DNA of 26,747 nucleotides from a virus. Lineage: Duplodnaviria > Heunggongvirae > Uroviricota > Caudoviricetes. The stretch lies in the IMG/VR virus record IMGVR_UViG_2778261499_000013, positions 1 to 26,747 of that record. One strand, 5' to 3'. A program made the translations under genes and the position numbers. Shown piece by piece: positions 1,237 to 23,251 of this stretch. Each line of letters opens with the position of its first letter. Positions within the stretch are counted from its first letter, which is position 1. The notes below the pieces were generated by a model. The model searched no databases. It saw only the letters and a program-made list of their open reading frames with translations, and was not told the DNA's origin.

Positions 1237-3399
1237 TTATTCACATAAAGATATTGATGCCAATATAAACATTGCAAGTTCGTCATATCTTATACCATAA
1301 CTTTCACAAAAGATATCTATATTTCCAGTCATGTGTTCGCGATGCGTTTTATCGTGACACCAAAACCCATACTTACTAGGATCAAGTCCGTGCTTCCTCA
1401 TTATATTACCAACAGTTTGAGCTCCAACACCAAAATGCCACCTAGCACCATCAAATCCCTTTACCTCAACAGAATCCAGCATCTTAAACTTTTTAATATT
1501 ATCTTTTATTTCTAGTGCAGCTTTTTTTTCAGCAACATCAATGTCTGTTAGTTTTGTTTTCAACATTTCATTTGATGTATTTATCATTCCTGTAGTTGCA
1601 TATATTGTTTTATATCTCGCATCCGGCCCACCAATATCAAAAGCATTATCAATTTGTGGTGTAATTTTCCCATAATGAAAGAATAATTCATGCTCACTAT
1701 TACCTATAGCTACAGTATTCTGAGCGGCAATTACCCCACTACCGATAGCTACTGCGTTACTTCCGGTTGATTTTGTATTATCTCCGAGAAGGACGCAGTT
1801 TGTCACATCTGTAGCCTGCTCTGACACGTTACCAGAATTAGAACCTAAAAATACATTGAAAGATCCAGCCGTTACTTTAAACCCTGCATCGAATCCAATA
1901 CCAACATTATCAGATCCTGATGCAGAATATAGCGCCTCGTAACCTATAGCTGTATTATTATTACCTAACGCGTTGAAACCCGACTTAGCCCCTACCGCAA
2001 CACAATACTGGATAGACACCCCCGTAGGAAAACTGGAATTACCGCCACGTAACGCATATTCACCAAAAGCGGTGTTCTCATTACCAGCACTGTTGTGATA
2101 CAAGGCCTGCACACCTGCCGCAGTATTCCCAAATCCTGTTTTGTTATACCTGTTAGTATCATTACCAATACCAGTATTACCGTAGCCTGTTGTGTTTGCA
2201 CATAACGCAAAAACCCCAACCGCTACGTTATCAGAACCAGATACGTTAGCTCTTAGAGAATCAGCACCGTATGCACAATTGTTTTTACCAGTCTTATTGT
2301 TTTCCATAGACTGAATCCCAGACGCGGTATTTGCGTATCCTGTAGTGTTTGAGTGCAAACTCTTCCACCCATATGCGGTATTGTTAGCTCCTACGTTTCC
2401 ACCGCCTAATGAGTCTTTTCCAGCGGAAGTATTAGTATCATTGTTTCCGCTAACATTAAAAATAACGCTTCCTGATTTAACGATGCTGCCACTTCCTGTG
2501 TTTATTACTGATGGATTGGAAGGAATGAAAAATGACCATGAGTCATTTACTGTATGTCCAGTGGTTGAAGAAAAGTTTATCTTCAATCCACTTACGAAAA
2601 AATCCACCCCACCTGCAAGTATTACGATTGGTTGCTGAGATACACTGTCATCGATTGGGTTGTACACGTCTATCGTGTCACGCCATGTAACTCCATTATC
2701 TGTACTGAATTCAAGCTTATCAGGATTTGAAGCTTCTTTTATTCTTACAATTGCATTTAGATCTTGCTGTCCATTGTATATTCCTGACACGGTCATGTCG
2801 TTAACACCAGAGCCAGAATATTTAGTCTGGTAATTAATCACTACTATGCCAGGCCCCCAATATCTCTTATTTAAGTTAATATTATTTACATTATAAATAC
2901 CATCAGGAATGTATATGTCATTGAATTCTGATATCTCTGCATCGTTAAATGCCTGCGTATTGTTTGTTAATCCATCACCAATAGCACCAAAAAAAGTAAT
3001 AGGCTTCGAAACACCACCTATCAATCCTGCTCCACCAGATGATTCAAGCTCCAACCTTAATTGATCCGGCTCATACTTCAACACATTAGGAAAATAGAAC
3101 TGCTGTGCACCATATACATCATAAACAGCCATAGAATGGCCTTGCACAGTTACGAATTTGGCAATCTGTCCGTTATATACAGGGTAACCAGCGGCGTTAA
3201 TGATGATTGGTTGCGAAACAGGAACGTGAGAACCGTCTTCGTTCTCTACATAAACCTGAATCTGGTTTTCAGGATTTACCGGGTCAGTGTCAATTTTACC
3301 GATATAAATTTTTCCATTAGCTACGGCTTTAAAAGAACGAGCCATAGTGAAGAGTTGCGAAGGCATACTCACTACAACATTGGCTGTAATGTCTGTCAT
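1237..3399 (-). CDS. Tailspike/tail fiber: P22 gp9-like head-binding N-domain, Gly/Asn/Thr-rich repeat domain, C-terminal chaperone-like domain
   Basis: 720-aa ORF; N-terminus [46 protein letters not shown] closely matches my recollection of the P22 tailspike head-binding domain; central GNTxxG/NTAxG repeats; C-terminal ~100 aa ([26 protein letters not shown]...) resembles intramolecular chaperone domains of endosialidase-type fibers. Confidence 0.85.
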
Positions 3400-3457
3400 T
3401 TAATTTGCTCCAGATACAAGGAATCGCCGCAGCATGGCTACGGTGAATTTTGGGCAT

Positions 3458-3481
3458 AAAAAAACCCAGCCGAAGCTGGGT
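3458..3481 (-). terminator. Intrinsic terminator between antirepressor and tailspike
   Basis: Minus-strand RNA ACCCAGC-UUCG-GCUGGGU followed by U7; perfect 7-bp stem with UUCG tetraloop. Confidence 0.7.
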
Positions 3482-3499
3482 CGTTGCGTTGGTTATCTG

Positions 3500-4390
3500 T
3501 CAGTAGTTATGTACTGAAGGAGGTAATTCTTTATTCTTAAGTCTCATCCATGCGGAAAGATTCGTTGGTCCGTCTGGCTCATTAATATCAACATCTCGTG
3601 TGTGGTTTATTAAAACGTCTCTCGCCATTCCGATAACATACGAGAACTCATGACCGTAGTCGTAGCATCTGCCGGAATAGTTCGATTGAATTTGTTTTAA
3701 TGCCGGATACAGTTCGCGGAATAATGCCTGTGAGCGGTTGGCATAATCCCATAACCATACAAGGCTGTTTGCTTCTTTTGCAGAAAGCTCGTTTGCTTTC
3801 TTCTCTTGTTTGCCGATTAACTCGCCTTCAAGCACTACCCTGTGGATGTACTCTACGGCCAGCGGGATTTGTTCAATTGAAAGTTCATCAATGCTGTCAA
3901 TACCAAAACGCTGATGAACCATATTGTATGCATCGTCATAGCGAAGTCCTTTCTTTCCTACCAGCATGTTTACTGCATCGCGTAGCGGTGTGCGTTCAGC
4001 TACTGAAGTTTTACCTCCAATAGCCTTCCTCTCTTGTGTGGCAGTAACCATTGCGTCATATGCACGGATAACCTTCAGCGCAAAGGCTGCGCTAATCCAC
4101 ATAGCGTAGGAGTAAACAAGCTCCTTGCACACGTAGGTTCCACCATATCGACCTTTCTTAGAAAGGACGGGATTCTTATTCTGCATATCCGCAGAATTAA
4201 AAATTTCATTAATCAATTCAATAGTTTCATTTCTACGCATGAAGAAAGCTGGCTGATGTTTTTCCTCCTTCCCAGACGCTACATGAAGGTCATTAAGCGA
4301 GTAACGCCCCTCTGAATCCATATGAATCTTGACGTCAGAAATGATGATGCTATTAGTGCAATTTACAGTTGACTTTGCTAAGCTTGACAT
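3500..4390 (-). CDS. ant: Antirepressor-like protein with KilA-N domain
   Basis: ORF with KilA-N-like N-terminal region ([36 protein letters not shown]); sits where P22 ant sits (downstream of arc, upstream of tailspike). Start uncertain: ATG at 4390 (AGGT 10 nt upstream) versus TTG at 4456 overlapping the upstream stop. Confidence 0.65.
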
Positions 4391-4452
4391 ATCAATAATA
4401 CCTCGTAAGTTTTGTTGATACCGAAGCCCTGACTGTTCCAGCAGTTGGGGCT

Positions 4453-4722
4453 TCAACGTTTTTCCACTTCATTTTGAATTTGCTTAAGTAGCATATTTGT
4501 CTCGTCAAGCCTCTTGTTAATACGGTCAAGGCTTTCTACTAAATCGTTATGTGCATGTGATACTTCGTAATTTGAGACTGATTTTTTTTCCTCTATCGTC
4601 TTTGTCAATCGTTCCCCTGATTGATACATATTGATTAACGATGTAAAAATCACGAGCAAGCAAACTACAATGATTGCGCCAGACAAAAATTGTAAAGAAC
4701 GATCAAGCAATGACACCTTCAT
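4453..4722 (-). CDS. Small membrane-anchored coiled-coil protein inserted between arc and ant
   Basis: 89-aa ORF; its ATG overlaps the arc stop (ATGA); hydrophobic segment [21 protein letters not shown] followed by a charged, heptad-like C-terminal region; no family recognised. Confidence 0.6.
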
Positions 4723-4877
4723 ACCGTAATCCCCTCTCTCTTCAGGCTGTCCATCACTCGCTTGTAAATCTCAGAGTTAACAGATCGCCCGTTCTCTTCA
4801 GCTACCTTGCGTACCAAATCCAATACTTCTTTAGGCCACCGCAAATTGAACTGCGGCATTTTGCTCATTCCTTTCAT
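4719..4877 (-). CDS. arc: Arc repressor (ribbon-helix-helix)
   Basis: Below the 60-aa ORF track cutoff; translated by hand: [52 protein letters not shown] (52 aa), near-identical to P22 Arc as I recall it; GAGG Shine-Dalgarno upstream. Confidence 0.9.
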   Translation of the reverse strand: MKGMSKMPQFNLRWPKEVLDLVRKVAEENGRSVNSEIYKRVMDSLKREGITV

Positions 4878-4891
4878 GTTCACCTCACATT

Positions 4892-4912
4892 ATAGGTCCA
4901 CCGTGGACCTAT
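4892..4912. promoter_or_regulatory. Mnt operator (perfect 21-bp palindrome)
   Basis: ATAGGTCCACCGTGGACCTAT is a perfect palindrome containing the P22 Omnt core AGGTCCACCGTGGACCT. Confidence 0.85.
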
Positions 4913-4940
4913 TGAGAATATAGTAGAGTGCTTCTATCAT
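4912..4940 (+). promoter_or_regulatory. Pmnt-like promoter
   Basis: Plus strand TTGAGA (4912-4917), 17-bp spacer, TATCAT (4935-4940); overlaps Pant divergently; GGAG Shine-Dalgarno 7 nt before the mnt ATG. Confidence 0.55.
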
Positions 4941-4945
4941 GTCAA
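4917..4945 (-). promoter_or_regulatory. Pant-like promoter driving arc-orf89-ant
   Basis: Minus strand TTGACA (4945-4940), 17-bp spacer, TATATT (4922-4917); the Arc operator fills the spacer and the Mnt operator covers the predicted start site. Confidence 0.7.
4920..4940. promoter_or_regulatory. Arc operator
   Basis: ATAGTAGAGTGCTTCTATCAT is the reverse complement of the 21-bp P22 arc operator ATGATAGAAGCACTCTACTAT as I recall it. Confidence 0.85.
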
Positions 4946-4967
4946 TACACTAACTTGGAGTGATGGC

Positions 4968-5225
4968 ATGGCTAGAGATGATCCGCACTTTAACTTCCGT
5001 ATGCCTTTGGAAGTAAGAGAAAAATTGAAATTAAGAGCCGAGGCTAACGGAAGGTCAATGAACTCTGAGTTATTACAAATCGTTCAGGATGCTCTCTCAA
5101 AGCCATCACCGATTGCAGGCTATCGCAACGAAGCTGAACGCTTGGCTGATGAACATTCGGATATCGTAAAAAATATGGTATTCGAAACTTTAAAAAAACT
5201 TTATGGAAAAGAAAAGAATGAGTAA
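4968..5225 (+). CDS. mnt: Mnt maintenance repressor (ribbon-helix-helix)
   Basis: 85-aa ORF MARDDPHFNFRMPLEVREKLKLRAEANGRSMNSELLQIVQDALSK... matches my recollection of P22 Mnt almost residue for residue. Confidence 0.92.
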   Translation: MARDDPHFNFRMPLEVREKLKLRAEANGRSMNSELLQIVQDALSKPSPIAGYRNEAERLADEHSDIVKNMVFETLKKLYGKEKNE

Positions 5226-5487
5226 TAAAGAGCTTGTTAAAAAATCAAATAACTGTGTCGATGCATATGCTGACTCATTTGGATACTCTTCGTTTGGTGA
5301 CGGTTCCCAGCGATTAGGTTCAATTTCTTTTTTTCATAATGTAACTGAATGGCCTGTTGATGAAAGCGGTGATGTTGAAAACATAAAGTACAATATTGCC
5401 ACCATTAGAATGCCTGAAGAATTGATGCTTAAATTGGCGGACTTCATTCGCGACCAACATTATAAGGCTAAAACAAACGAGTCGTAA
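5218..5487 (+). CDS. Hypothetical small protein with Arc/Mnt-like RMPEEL segment
   Basis: ORF overlapping the mnt 3' end (ATG at 5218 preferred over 5203 by purine-rich upstream context); C-terminal NIATIRMPEELMLKLADFIRDQ resembles the beta-strand and first helix of Arc/Mnt. Confidence 0.5.
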   Translation: MSNKELVKKSNNCVDAYADSFGYSSFGDGSQRLGSISFFHNVTEWPVDESGDVENIKYNIATIRMPEELMLKLADFIRDQHYKAKTNES

Positions 5488-5490
5488 TCA

Positions 5491-5940
5491 ATGATGAAAC
5501 ACGATTATTACGAAGCTCCAAATCTAACTGAAAAGCTTGAACAAGCGGAAAAATCATCATCTTTGTACACAAATCCAATTTCTCAGTCATCAGGAATGTC
5601 TGGCATGAATATGGGCATGCTACAATCAAGTGGTGGTGGAGCTGGGAGTAACAACATGCTTGAGGCTAGGGTTGCACGGTTAGAGGCAGATGTTGAAAAC
5701 ATTAAGACCAATCTATCTGAGGCAAGGTCTGACATCTCTCGTTTGCGTGATATCTCAGCTGATACATCCAGAGATGTTGCGGTGGTCCTGCAAAAAATAG
5801 TAGATGTAGACGAAAAATTATCAAAAAAACCGAGTAAGAGCGAAGTCCAGACATTGATATCTTCTGCAGTAAACAAGCAAATACTATGGACCATAGGGAC
5901 TGGATTTGCTCTTTTAGGGATAGCTAAATATATATTTTAG
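5491..5940 (+). CDS. Hypothetical tail-anchored coiled-coil membrane protein
   Basis: 149 aa; Ser/Gly/Met-rich low-complexity N-terminus, heptad-like central region (LEARVARLEADVENIKTNLSEARSDISRLRDI), single C-terminal hydrophobic helix ILWTIGTGFALLGIAKYIF; starts 3 nt after the previous stop. Confidence 0.6.
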   Translation: MMKHDYYEAPNLTEKLEQAEKSSSLYTNPISQSSGMSGMNMGMLQSSGGGAGSNNMLEARVARLEADVENIKTNLSEARSDISRLRDISADTSRDVAVVLQKIVDVDEKLSKKPSKSEVQTLISSAVNKQILWTIGTGFALLGIAKYIF

Positions 5941-6009
5941 CTCACCTCATCAGCTATCTTCTTGTTCCATTCACTCAGTGCCACTGCAAGGAAAACTAAG
6001 GAGGTTAGT

Positions 6010-6399
6010 GTGAAGCGATTTCTTGCTGGTATGTTTTTATTCATATCTTTTGGGGCTACAGCAGAATGCTGGGTTGTTGGAGATATGCGCGGAATAAGCT
6101 ATTCAGAACGAAATAATTTCCAACCGGAAGAAGATGGTTTTAGTGGAACATTTATCATTAAGACAAGCGGTGAAGATGCCAGCATCACATATTCTGGGAC
6201 GGATGCTGGCGGCATGGCTTACAAAGCATTGTCTAAAAACTCCATCATAGGAATCGGCGCGAATGGCGAAACTCAACGAGTTATCGACTCATGGGTAATA
6301 CATCCTAATGGAACAGTTTTAATGTCGAAAACCATTTCTGGTTATGGAAACATGGATTCAACCAAAGCTTTTGTTGGAAAAGTAAAAAGAAAATGTTAA
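6010..6399 (+). CDS. Hypothetical secreted (periplasmic) protein
   Basis: GTG start 5 nt after a strong Shine-Dalgarno TAAGGAGGT (5997-6005); predicted signal peptide KRFLAGMFLFISFGATA with AxA cleavage site; mature protein about 110 aa with Cys near both ends. The ORF-track ATG at 5962 lacks a Shine-Dalgarno. Confidence 0.6.
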   Translation: MKRFLAGMFLFISFGATAECWVVGDMRGISYSERNNFQPEEDGFSGTFIIKTSGEDASITYSGTDAGGMAYKALSKNSIIGIGANGETQRVIDSWVIHPNGTVLMSKTISGYGNMDSTKAFVGKVKRKC

Positions 6400-6423: not shown

Positions 6424-8265
6424 TTACTGCTGTGTTGCCTCAGTGGCAAGCAGCGGTCTGATGGCATTTGCAGCGTTACTTAATGCTCTTTCATAGGCTG
6501 GCGTTCCAGCTTTAGTGTTTGCCAGACGTAAGAGAGCATTCCTTGCTGCTTTGGACTCATACAAGCGCATCATTGCACCGAAACCAGCCTCAAGCCCCAT
6601 TGATACGCCAAGAGTCGCAGTTGCGCCAATCGTCCTTATCCTATTGGCTTGCGATTGCCCCGTCTGAGTTACTACATTTGCGGTGTCTGACCTTGCTGTT
6701 TGCTGTAGAACTTCATGAAGAGCATCAAGCTCTTTCATGTGCTTTCCAGAAAAAATAGTGTTGTAAATTTCACCGCCTGACTGAGATTTCAGCTTATTAA
6801 CTTCAGTGATGAACTTGGCTGGAGAGTCACCGGCCTTTTCCGCTATTTTGCTGACGTAAGCTGCACGCATAGCATCTTTCCCTTTATCATCCAATGCGCT
6901 CCAGATTCGTTTCACGTCAGATGGTTTTCTGCTTAATACAACGGTATTTATAAGTTCAGGACTGGCTTCACTGCTTGCCTTGTTGAGCTTGTTAGCAATG
7001 TTTTTATTAAGCACCTTATTATAAACGTTTGCATAATCGGAATTTGCTTTAAGGTATTTTGCTGCGTCTGATGCACCGAGGTTTTTTGCAACTGCGTTAC
7101 GAAGATCTTTTGACATTGCATTCTCTACCATATTGGTAGCTGCTTTTGCCTGGTTGGGGAAGACCATAGCATCTCCCTGAACATTAGATCTAAATGCTGT
7201 TCTGTGCTGACGCAAGAGATCAAACGTAACATCCAAATCAGTTGCAGGGTTTGCTAATTCTTCACGTAGGTTACGCAAGGATGTAAGCAGGCTTTGATTG
7301 GCAGACGTCCCAAGCCGTTCCTGTCTTGCGATCGCTGTATTCAGAGCATTCATGGTATTTGTGGTATCAACTGCGGCATTACCCATTTTATTGGTGACGT
7401 CATTGATAACAGCGCCAGCGGCATCCTTCCGCCCCCTTAACGTGGTGGTCAGAGATTTCACCACATCATCAGGGTTGTACTCACCAAAACGGTCAAAATA
7501 ATTGCTTACCAGCTTACTACGCGTTGCATATTGCTCCGCACGCTTTGAACCTGTCCCTAGCAAAGCCCCCTCAGCATCCTGAGTAAGGCCACGAGTGAAA
7601 GCATTTTTCGGCGTGATTACATCAGATGTCATAGGTGTCACGCCCATCGATTCTGATGTGGCAATTTTTTTCGCTACTTCTGGCGCAATATCGCCTTTTA
7701 TAGCCGTTATTCCACGACCTATTCCCTTTGCTGCTGCGGAAAGAACACCCTGAGCAGCAAGGTTAACTCCGGCATTTTTAGCTGCATTTTGTGCGAAATC
7801 GCCTTTCTGATTTGCGGCCTCTGCCAGTGATCCAATAGCCATGCTTCCTGCCGTTCCAACTCCTGGAACTAAATACCCGCCAATTGTTTCTCCAGCTTGC
7901 GCATAAGGGTCTGTTGGTCGATCTACTGGACGATAGACATCGTCCAAAACCTTGGGGCCACCAAGCCCCTGGCTGATTGCATTAATCAGACTTGCGCCAC
8001 CCTGCAATACGTCAAATGGTATGTTTACCAGACCACGACCAGCCTGCTCTGCAATTTGCCCTGCACTTTGACCACCTGTGAGCCAATCGCCAGCTTGTTG
8101 CATCAATGATGGTTCTTCACGTGCTGGTTCATTATTGGCCTGATTAACTGTTTGTTGCTGAACAGCCTGACCAGCAAAATACTCATCAATGGCGGTGCCA
8201 ATATCTTCCGTGCTCGTACCATCAGGGAAGGTAAATGTCTTACCGTTTGCAGTTACTTTCATCAT
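6424..8265 (-). CDS. Ejection/internal virion protein, P22 gp16-like
   Basis: 613-aa ORF at the position and size of P22 gene 16 (609 aa), last gene of the late operon; start overlaps the upstream stop. Confidence 0.8.
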
Positions 8266-22006: not shown

Positions 22007-22471
22007 TCAAAGGCATTGCGTCCTGATGTATTCCTGAAGCGTTCTCAGTGCTGTTTGGTCGCGGATAATTCCGTCCCGGATATCGAGAACGTTTCGTCCA
22101 GCAACTGAAGAGAGTTCGACGGTGGCCTCATTGCCCATGCCGGAGGAGCTGGAGGTTTTGGCTGAGGCTGGCACAGGGCATTTTCCTTTGACGAGCACCC
22201 GACCACCATTATCAAGCTTGCGCCGAAGAGCATCATTTTCAGCTTTCGCATCAGCTAACTCCTTCGTGTATTTAGCATCGAGTGCATCAGCATCACGCTG
22301 GCGCTGTTGCATGTCAGTAATGGTGGCGTTCGCCAGCTTCAGCTCACTGACTTTTTTATCGCGCTGCTCTTTGTAGGTAATGGCGTTATCACGGTAATGA
22401 TTAACAGCCCATGACAGGCAGACGATGATGCAGATAATCAGAGCGGAGATAATCGCGGTTACTCTGCTCAT
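22007..22471 (-). CDS. Rz: Spanin inner-membrane subunit Rz
   Basis: 154 aa; N-terminal 90 aa ([34 protein letters not shown]...) near-identical to lambda Rz as I recall it; C-terminal half diverges. Confidence 0.9.
22045..22251 (-). CDS. Rz1: Spanin outer-membrane lipoprotein Rz1
   Basis: 68-aa ORF embedded in the +1 frame of Rz; [21 protein letters not shown] has a lipobox (VVGC), followed by a Pro-rich segment [11 protein letters not shown] as in lambda Rz1. Confidence 0.8.
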
Positions 22472-22944
22472 ACCTCAATCTCTCTGACCGTTCCGCCTGC
22501 TTCTTTGAATTTTGCAATCAGGCTGTCAGCCTTATGCTCGAACTGACCATAACCAGCGCCCGGCAGTGAAGCCCAGATATTGCTGCAACGGTCGATTGCC
22601 TGACGAATATCACCGCGATCAATCATAGGTAAAGCGCCACGCTCTTTAATCTGTTGCAGTGCCACAGCGTCCTGGCTTTTAGGAGAGAAGTCTTTCAGGC
22701 CAAGCTGCTTACGGTAGGCATCCCACCAACGGGAAAGAAGCTGGTAGCGCCCGGCGGCTGTTGATTTGAGTTTGGGGTTTAGCGTGACAAGTTTGCGAGG
22801 GTGATCGGAGTAATCAGTGAATAGCTCTCCGCCAACAATGACGTCATAACCATGATTTCTGGTTTTCTGACGTCCGTTATCAGTTCCCTCTGACCACGCC
22901 AGCATATCGAGGAACGCCTTACGTTGATTATTGATTTCCACCAT
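22468..22944 (-). CDS. R: Endolysin, lambda R-type lytic transglycosylase
   Basis: 158 aa, [51 protein letters not shown]... essentially identical to lambda R as I recall it. Confidence 0.95.
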
Positions 22945-23251
22945 CTTCTACTCCGGCTTTTTTAGCAGCGAAGCGTTTGATAAGCGAACCAATCGAGTCA
23001 GTACCGATGTAGCCGATGAACACGCTCGTTATATAAGCGAGATTGCTACTTAGTCCGGCGAAGTCGAGAAGGTCACGAATGAACCAGGCGATAATGGCGC
23101 ACATCGTTGCGTCGATTACTGTTTTTGTAAACGCACCGCCATTATATCTGCCGCGAAGGTACGCCATTGCAAACGCAAGGATTGCCCCGATGCCTTGTTC
23201 CTTTGCCGCGAGAATGGCGGCTAACAGGTCATGTTTTTCTGGCATCTTCAT
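22928..23251 (-). CDS. S: Holin/antiholin, lambda S-type with dual start
   Basis: 107 aa [43 protein letters not shown]...; Met1-Lys2-Met3 dual-start motif (ATG at 23251 and 23245); upstream CCCC-UUAUU-GGGG hairpin (23259-23271) like the lambda sdi structure; 3' end overlaps R. Confidence 0.95.

Follow-up and report, generated by a model that had tools for sequence, protein, structure and literature searches.

A predicted membrane-protein gene in an exchangeable cassette slot between arc and sar of a P22-like Escherichia coli prophage

The immI region of the window

Phage P22's immI region is a textbook regulatory circuit, and its surroundings are known to be changeable. We analyzed this region in a 26,747 nucleotide (nt) stretch of DNA (IMG/VR virus record IMGVR_UViG_2778261499_000013, positions 1 to 26,747; hereafter the window), which is a P22-like (Lederbergvirus-type) E. 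coli prophage. A sequence-only reading of the window had described the repressor gene arc, an 89-codon open reading frame (ORF) overlapping the arc stop codon as ATGA, and an antirepressor gene, ant, of KilA-N type, and all three are present. The immI region (about 3460-5230) runs in the order Pant, arc, the 89-codon ORF (orf89), the antisense RNA sar and ant. It has the hallmark of P22-type immI regions, namely divergent mnt and arc-ant operons with overlapping Pmnt and Pant promoters and with operators for both Arc and Mnt. The features are listed below.

3463-3482, minus strand: terminator-like hairpin 3' of ant, from a terminator scan, at the position of the annotated terminators in phages Emek and P22
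3500-4390, minus strand: ant, 296 amino acids (aa), KilA-N N-domain and P22_AR_C C-domain
4356-4384, plus strand: candidate Psar (GTGCAA-17-TAAGCT), at a position homologous to that of Psar in P22 (GTGTTA-17-TATACT)
4392-4458, plus strand: sar antisense RNA, full-length match to Rfam RF00262 (62.5 bits, gathering cutoff 43, E=2e-12)
4453-4722, minus strand: orf89, 89 aa, whose ATG overlaps the arc TGA as ATGA and whose stop codon (TGA) coincides with the first 3 nt of the sar hairpin
4582-4589: A8/T8 homopolymer inside orf89, the site of -1 frameshift alleles
4719-4877, minus strand: arc, 52 aa, Pfam Arc E=1.9e-27, with a C-terminus (...KREGITV) called cassette-type below
4894-4916: Mnt operator, from P22 feature coordinates transferred by alignment
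4912-4940: Pmnt, from a promoter scan
4917-4945, minus strand: Pant (TTGACA-17-TATATT), driving arc-orf89-ant; 11/12 in the promoter scan, position matching the annotated P22 Pant
4920-4940: Arc operator, overlapping Pant, position matching the annotated P22 Oarc
4968-5225, plus strand: mnt, the maintenance repressor gene, divergent and read from Pmnt; Pfam Arc E=1.4e-27, Repressor_Mnt E=3e-16

The gap between arc and ant in P22 is 70 nt long and contains the sar antisense RNA but no further gene, in agreement with the earlier reading. Homology between the window and P22 falls into three blocks: the 3' half of ant (3431-4012), a block of 41 nt (4420-4460) corresponding to the sar terminator of P22, and arc to mnt (4731-5188). 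Relative to P22 the window has a 258-bp insertion between arc and the sar terminator. Gene order, orientation, operators and promoters, sar (RF00262), the spacing between hairpin and ant, and the P22_AR_C domain of Ant are alike in the two phages, and the promoter and operator block (4870-4975) aligns with identity at 103 of 106 positions. The window differs from P22 in carrying the orf89 cassette, in the replacement of the last four Arc codons (GITV for GRIGA), in having KilA-N rather than P22_AR_N at the N-terminus of Ant, and in the -10 hexamer of Psar (TAAGCT vs TATACT). Judged from sequence, the operon is thus a P22 operon with an extra gene and a different Ant N-domain. Since Pant, the Arc and Mnt operators, sar and the ant leader are all retained, the P22 control circuit as a whole is intact, with 258 bp added. 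The 296 nt around orf89 are 100% identical in the APEC O2-211 chromosome and in six other complete E. coli genomes.

In P22-like phages Pant fires at once after infection and is then shut off by Arc, Mnt silences Pant in lysogens, and a late transcript from PLATE reads through immI to the tailspike gene (PMC12111858, PMC2629481). Both arc and ant are transcribed from Pant as well as from PLATE, with sar acting on the late transcript (PMC12111858), and translation of ant is blocked by sar (PMC12111858, PMC2629481). The architecture of the window supports the proposal that the extra gene is co-transcribed with arc and ant from a P22-like Pant under Arc and Mnt operators.

A cassette slot between arc and sar

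Salmonella phage vB_SemP_Emek (NC_018275) resembles the window in its KilA-N/P22_AR_C Ant (96% DNA identity), in its cassette-type arc end and in having an ORF in the slot between arc and sar. However, the slot of Emek holds a 73-codon ORF (orf73, phrog_11805, deposited in 2012) that is unrelated to orf89. Since Emek carries the same KilA-N Ant with an unrelated ORF, we surveyed the slot in other phages and prophages. We fetched 80 arc loci from IMG/VR (159 were confirmed in all) and searched IMG/VR for the cassette-type arc end AGAGAGGGGATWACGGTRTGA, which returned 71 loci. Among the 80 fetched loci, an Arc ending in ...EGRIGA has ant 70 nt downstream, as in P22, and an Arc ending in ...REGITV has an extra ORF downstream. 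The slot is occupied, by an intact or a decayed ORF, in about 71 of about 159 IMG/VR arc loci. A gene between arc and ant is therefore not unusual, against what the sequence-only reading had supposed of a membrane protein co-regulated with the antirepressor, although orf89 itself is rare. The occupants of the 71 loci are as follows.

orf89: 10 intact copies; none entered as decayed in the 71-locus table
orf73: 14 intact copies; no decayed entry
orf74: 7 intact copies; no decayed entry
orf67: 11 intact copies; 11 frameshifted
orf57 (GTG start): 5 intact copies; 10 reduced to a 12-codon in-frame deletion scar, VIRLDAAKKSKQ
orf80: 3 intact copies; no decayed entry

The 5' junction is common to all 71 loci, and the start codon of the occupant overlaps the arc stop codon as ATGA or GTGA. 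At the other end the stop codon is in all cases the TGA that opens an invariant hairpin, TGAAGCCCCAACTG, and in every case three times the ORF length equals the distance to this TGA. An A-rich run precedes the hairpin TGA and, read on the opposite strand, forms the U-tail of the sar terminator. BLASTP comparisons among the occupants (e.g. orf73 vs orf80, orf74 vs orf67) detected no pairwise similarity. By inspection of the sequences, only orf89 among the six has a hydrophobic stretch of membrane-spanning length. Since the five other occupants are unrelated and have no such stretch, the conserved feature is the slot and not an envelope function. The slot is empty in P22, epsilon34 and many others, and these empty slots, together with the frameshifted alleles described below, suggest that orf89 is dispensable. 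Our data show that the slot exists, that it is precisely bounded, and that it has at least six unrelated and exchangeable occupants. In the literature that we searched we found no description of genes between arc and ant, of a sub-slot in the arc-ant operon, of its exact shared junctions, of the coupling to arc or of a census of six occupants.

Some further properties of the occupants were noted. Two of them are CxxC proteins: orf67 begins MSKECCFCG and has the pattern CxxC...CxxC, and orf74 has CDFC...CNKC and a weak match to the ClpX zinc finger; orf57 corresponds to phrog_17642 (IMG/VR loci L092-L162, e.g. L094, L093, L095 and L098). The orf73 product of Emek (L001:4054-4275) and the orf80 product of L098 match Pfam FlbD (PF06289, flagellar/swarming motor-associated) below threshold, with 14.6 and 21.5 bits vs a cutoff of 24.7. 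In two IMG/VR loci (L040 and L041) an arc homologue ending in ...REGIALT has, in place of a following ant, a region resembling a terminator and a 109-aa protein whose N-terminus looks like a signal peptide. On their sequence these two loci would be another immI rearrangement, one without an antirepressor.

The KilA-N-type N-terminus that had been proposed for Ant in place of that of P22 was confirmed by Pfam. The window protein matches KilA-N (PF04383; E=4.5e-19, 68.7 bits vs a gathering cutoff of 23.8) and P22_AR_C (E=3.9e-29, 101 bits), whereas P22 Ant consists of P22_AR_N and P22_AR_C. The relatives of its KilA-N domain include the KilA proteins of P1 and P7 (39% identity). The 3' half of ant (3431-4012) is 84% identical to P22 ant at the DNA level, and the 5' half is a foreign module. 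Swapping of KilA-N, Bro-N and other N-domains in antirepressor-like proteins is a familiar pattern, and the window Ant fits it, with KilA-N, Bro-N and P22_AR_N found on a common C-domain. From its domain content we predict that Ant is an antirepressor directed against a c2-type repressor; the Emek record flags its own ant copy as "Defective?". Two starts had been considered for ant, ATG 4390 and TTG 4456, and both the hairpin spacing and the Shine-Dalgarno (SD) sequence favor the former. The distance from the sar hairpin, counted from its first base, to ATG 4390 is 66 nt, the same as in P22, and the SD sequence ACGAGGT lies upstream of this ATG. We ruled out TTG 4456, which is inside the sar hairpin. 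The 296-aa form is also the one called by the Prokaryotic Genome Annotation Pipeline (PGAP) and in the Emek record.

We then cross-tabulated the slot contents with the N-domains of Ant. In the surveyed loci the domains found on the common P22_AR_C were P22_AR_N (two or three subtypes), KilA-N and Bro-N. We found orf89 paired with KilA-N (4), with high-identity P22_AR_N (3), with low-identity P22_AR_N (1) and with Bro-N (2), and its 83-aa relatives and a 91%-identical allele (see below) are all upstream of P22_AR_N Ants. Conversely, KilA-N Ant is paired with orf89, with orf73 (in Emek), with orf67 or with an empty slot (L043 and L085). This shows that slot content and Ant N-domain assort independently, as separate mosaic modules, and nothing therefore ties orf89 to antirepression. 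The sequence-only reading had paired the extra membrane gene with the KilA-N antirepressor and suggested that the membrane protein couples antirepression to the envelope. Both elements are real, but the link between them is unsupported, because orf89 occurs with three different Ant N-domains and the KilA-N Ant occurs without orf89.

The orf89 gene, its product and its expression

An SD sequence, GAGAGGGG, lies 8-9 nt upstream of the orf89 ATG, within the last codons of arc. With this base composition, a run of 89 codons would lack a stop by chance with a probability of about 6e-4. The ratio of nonsynonymous to synonymous substitution rates (dN/dS) is 0.29 when orf89 is compared with the 91%-identical allele, and it is also 0.29 against the 83-aa relatives over the first 51 aligned codons, which encode the N-tail, the membrane segment and the juxtamembrane motif. 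These sequence features and comparisons indicate that orf89 is a true gene whose translation is coupled to that of arc, and that its membrane-proximal half is under purifying selection. The cassette is AT-rich, with a GC content of 36-39% vs about 46% in arc and the 3' half of ant. In at least three different prophages with a P22-type Ant the A8 run of orf89 is reduced to A7, and these alleles encode a 60-aa product made of the membrane helix and a new tail (loci L007-L009 aligned to the window; proteins P0005, P0007 and P0008). In Escherichia phage EC.P3 and in the 91% allele the A8 run is interrupted by substitutions and the frame is intact.

The orf89 product has already been deposited as a hypothetical protein (WP_001555392.1 from PGAP, phrog_27312). 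A word-indexed search of 5.8 billion proteins returned only proteins at least 84% identical to it, and in that set the family comprises 11 clusters at 90% identity. When 1.84 billion representatives were searched exhaustively with phmmer, a single 83-aa protein was added, from the same slot, and a profile search added two more relatives, one of them from Serratia marcescens. All three distant relatives are 40-49% identical to orf89. The prophages that carry them are P22-like but diverged (gp16 47% identical, Arc 88%), and in every case the layout is arc, ATGA, ORF, ant. The gene is present in 14 of 5426 complete E. coli genomes, in 10 of the 71 occupied-slot loci of IMG/VR and in 2 of 50,697 phage records, those of EC.P3, whose Ant N-domain differs from that of the window, and of Salmonella phage S.Kent 1-2-1.

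The 89-aa protein had been described as transmembrane with a coiled coil, which hydropathy and an AlphaFold2 prediction support. Its most hydrophobic 19-residue stretch is residues 12-30 (mean Kyte-Doolittle 2.79), and the predicted membrane-spanning segment covers about residues 12-32. The AlphaFold2 model is a single continuous helix over residues 3-88 with a predicted local distance difference test score (pLDDT) of 88. Residues 61-86 show a 3-4 hydrophobic repeat, the C-terminal coiled coil is predicted to have four heptads, and a conserved juxtamembrane motif, YxSGERLTxTIE, is also present. When orf89 is compared with the 83-aa relatives, the N-tail, the hydrophobic helix (LSGAIIV...FT) and the SGxRL..IE motif are conserved family-wide; the coiled coil differs by a 7-residue indel, which is one heptad, and the C-terminal part is far more diverged. 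The window's orf89 has every trait of its family: the arc-coupled start, one N-terminal membrane helix, the motif, the C-terminal heptads and a stop codon in the sar hairpin. We conclude that orf89 is predicted to encode a single-pass membrane protein with a short, oligomerising coiled coil.

A scan for an internal promoter able to express orf89 in lysogens found none between Pant and the orf89 start, and the terminator scan found no sense-strand terminator 3' of orf89. The sar RNA folds as two hairpins (z=-6.9), of which the terminator hairpin was placed at 4423-4454 by the terminator scan. This RNA is antisense to the ant leader and ribosome-binding site, and it also overlaps the stop codon of orf89. 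The candidate Psar was not picked up by the consensus promoter scan. Its -10 hexamer in the KilA-N type, TAAGCT, is weaker than the TATACT of P22, so sar output may be lower or differ. Across the three unrelated N-domain types P22_AR_N, KilA-N and Bro-N, Ant retains codons 2-5 (xS[IL]A) (4356-4390, plus strand; loci L002, L024 and L010), probably because the same DNA encodes the Psar -10 region on the other strand. There is also a TTGACA-16-AAAAAT match (10/12) inside orf89 at 4608-4581 on the minus strand, pointing towards ant. If it were a true promoter it would allow ant transcription independent of Arc and Mnt; the promoter-like matches in the region number 7, which is within chance (4.7 +/- 2.2 expected).

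Possible roles of orf89 and other features of the window

With moderate confidence we propose that orf89 is a real but dispensable accessory membrane-protein gene in an exchangeable immI cassette slot; this confidence covers the slot and the membrane protein and excludes any specific envelope role. The slot boundaries would serve its expression, the 3' end of arc giving the SD sequence and the overlapping A/GTGA start and the first three bases of the hairpin giving the stop. Translation would be coupled to arc on the Pant transcript, in a burst right after DNA entry that Arc shuts off, and orf89 would be silent in lysogens under Mnt. A second round of translation would come late, from the PLATE read-through transcript. 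The gene would escape sar, which covers the ant leader and ribosome-binding site and only the last orf89 codons. The protein would insert in the inner membrane and oligomerise via its coiled coil, and it would act during infection rather than lysogeny, and not through Ant. There it could alter an envelope process to the benefit of the phage, by exclusion of co- or superinfecting phage or by neutralising a membrane-associated host or prophage defence. Such an envelope-directed role during infection (exclusion or anti-defence) is our best guess, which we infer. Many alternative occupants, frequent empty slots, frequent decay and AT-rich composition are traits typical of accessory genes in phage-phage and phage-host conflict.

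Several observations weigh against this proposal. Since orf89 is expected to be repressed in lysogens, classical prophage-encoded exclusion would be ruled out. Pfam gave no significant family, and its sub-threshold matches were to helical domains of unknown function (DUFs) only; those to DUF948 (15.9 vs a cutoff of 37.2 bits) and DUF1664 (16.5 vs 34.6 bits) fall below gathering and look compositional. PADLOC returned no defence match and NCBI-style names returned nothing significant. Nor was there a profile match to superinfection-exclusion or defence families in PADLOC, PHROGs or Pfam, phrog_27312 being without assigned function. A sequence search of the PDB gave a best E of 0.26, and Foldseek with the AlphaFold2 model gave 0 matches in the PDB, as expected for a model that is a single helix. 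Charge slightly favors an N-in topology with a periplasmic coiled coil, but only a weak positive-inside signal is present (the 11-aa N-tail has 2 K/R, and the next 15 aa have 2 K/R and 3 D/E). In the coiled-coil half dN/dS is about 1.2, with small counts, and weak constraint fits this value as well as fast adaptive change does. Finally, frameshifted orf89 alleles persist in several prophages. The PDB search also listed the S6-plus-coiled-coil region of NavMs (E=0.78), a match that we judged compositional.

The gene 16-gene 9 interval of P22-like phages, which Villafane et al. (2008, PMC2629481) named the "ant moron", changes rapidly: sixteen genomes contained ten types of it. The orf89 region shares with the ant moron its location between genes 16 and 9, an AT content above that of the flanks and its non-essential nature. 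The slot cassettes resemble morons in being present or absent between conserved neighbours and in their deviant composition. However, morons have their own promoter and terminator and are expressed from the prophage, while the cassettes have neither of the two elements and are coupled to arc in an operon predicted to be silenced by Mnt. The cassettes also share nucleotide-precise boundaries, a trait that classical morons do not have.

T4 Imm, HK97 gp15, P22 SieA and SPO1 gp56 are small phage membrane proteins that act on the envelope during infection. By analogy orf89 would be alike in being small, predicted to be in the inner membrane, accessory and dispensable, but none of the four has sequence or profile similarity to orf89. 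In addition gp15 and SieA are expressed from the prophage, while orf89 is expected to be repressed in lysogens.

A broader reading, which we regard as possible but doubtful, is that the gap between arc and sar is a dedicated payload site for immediate-early proteins and that its occupants, at least six and all unrelated, serve in counter-defence or exclusion. The boundaries would then supply the ribosome-binding site, the start overlap, the stop and the sar terminator tail, so that any small ORF inserted would be expressed with Arc in the first minutes of infection. The occupants would comprise one membrane protein, two CxxC proteins, two proteins with sub-threshold FlbD-like matches and one other, and orf89 would be the membrane-acting member, for example blocking a membrane-embedded defence or the DNA entry of a second phage. 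An improbable reading is a toxin-like or addiction module, in which orf89 would be a viroporin-like, membrane-damaging protein freed when Pant is derepressed by Mnt loss or infection, with faster host shut-off or the killing of cells that lose immI control as its effect. An autoregulated promoter followed by a ribbon-helix-helix autorepressor gene (arc) and a small ORF overlapping it by 4 nt is a type II toxin-antitoxin layout, one membrane helix with an oligomerising coiled coil could form a membrane lesion, and frequent inactivation, as of costly genes, is seen in the A8 frameshift of orf89, in the half of orf67 copies that are frameshifted and in the two thirds of orf57 copies that are deleted. 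Yet orf89 matches no toxin family and has no PADLOC match, and five of the six occupants are unrelated and have no hydrophobic membrane segment. Arc is a DNA-binding repressor and is not known to neutralise proteins. Moreover, intact orf89 is stably kept in 14 complete E. coli genomes.

We give very little credence to three further explanations. The first is a lysis protein produced late by read-through from PLATE, either of i-spanin type or a regulator resembling an antiholin. It would fit the layout of an N-terminal membrane segment and a coiled coil, which is that of an i-spanin, a weak PHROG match to an Rz-like spanin (E=0.048) and the location of orf89 where late transcription passes on its way to the tailspike (PMC2629481, PMC12111858). 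But the PHROG match is not significant, Pfam gives no match to Rz (PF03245), the protein has no periplasmic cysteines, and at 89 aa it is short compared with about 150 for Rz. We rejected a spanin identity because the window already has a complete lysis cassette with holin and Rz (22007-23251) and because no lipobox ORF is embedded in or adjoins orf89, which leaves it without an o-spanin partner. Cooperation of the membrane protein with the antirepressor, the idea of the sequence-only reading, for instance by tethering or timing Ant at the envelope, has in its favor that the adjacent genes are co-transcribed from Pant. Against it, three Ant N-domains are seen beside orf89, the same KilA-N Ant also occurs next to orf73 or behind an empty slot, the position is filled elsewhere by five unrelated small proteins, and sar regulates ant separately from orf89. 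Finally, orf89 could be a non-functional remnant, decaying or never expressed, as its very small family (11 clusters among 5.8 billion proteins), its frameshift alleles and the dN/dS of its C-terminal half could suggest. This is hard to reconcile with the conservation of reading frame, start coupling and stop position in proteins of different genera that are 40-49% identical, with the dN/dS of 0.29 in the N-terminal half, with an indel that is a whole heptad, and with the low probability (about 6e-4) of finding no stop codon.

What is new here is a cassette site within the arc-ant operon, with nucleotide-exact junctions and at least six unrelated small genes, which are expected to be expressed early in infection rather than in lysogeny. 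Should the cassettes act in counter-defence or exclusion, new ones could be harvested with a sequence handle made of the arc 3' end and the sar hairpin, and at least one carrier of orf89, EC.P3, is culturable. If the cassettes have no effect, the slot still illustrates neatly how mosaic exchange takes place at boundary sequences that are conserved. As for orf89, the practical outcome is negative, with no evidence of a link between antirepression and the envelope.

The window also holds head and terminase genes and the following features.

1-1158: integrase
1237-3399, minus strand: tailspike with P22 head-binding domain
6424-8265, minus strand: gp16 homologue
22007-22471: Rz, PF03245
22928-23251: holin, PF05106

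Three ORFs, orf94, orf149 and orf145, lie 3' of mnt (5203-6399, plus strand), where they replace orf59a and sieA of P22. Of these, orf94 matches phrog_4231, orf149 (phrog_3556) has a coiled coil, a C-terminal membrane helix and a weak match to an XhlA-like hemolysin PHROG, and orf145 (phrog_2651) has an N-terminal hydrophobic segment. Unlike orf89, all three appear to be positioned for prophage expression with mnt. In the tailspike the P22 head-binding domain is joined to an endosialidase-type stalk, with a Peptidase_S74 intramolecular chaperone at the C-terminal end. Its middle part has glycine/asparagine-rich repeats, and Pfam found no catalytic domain.

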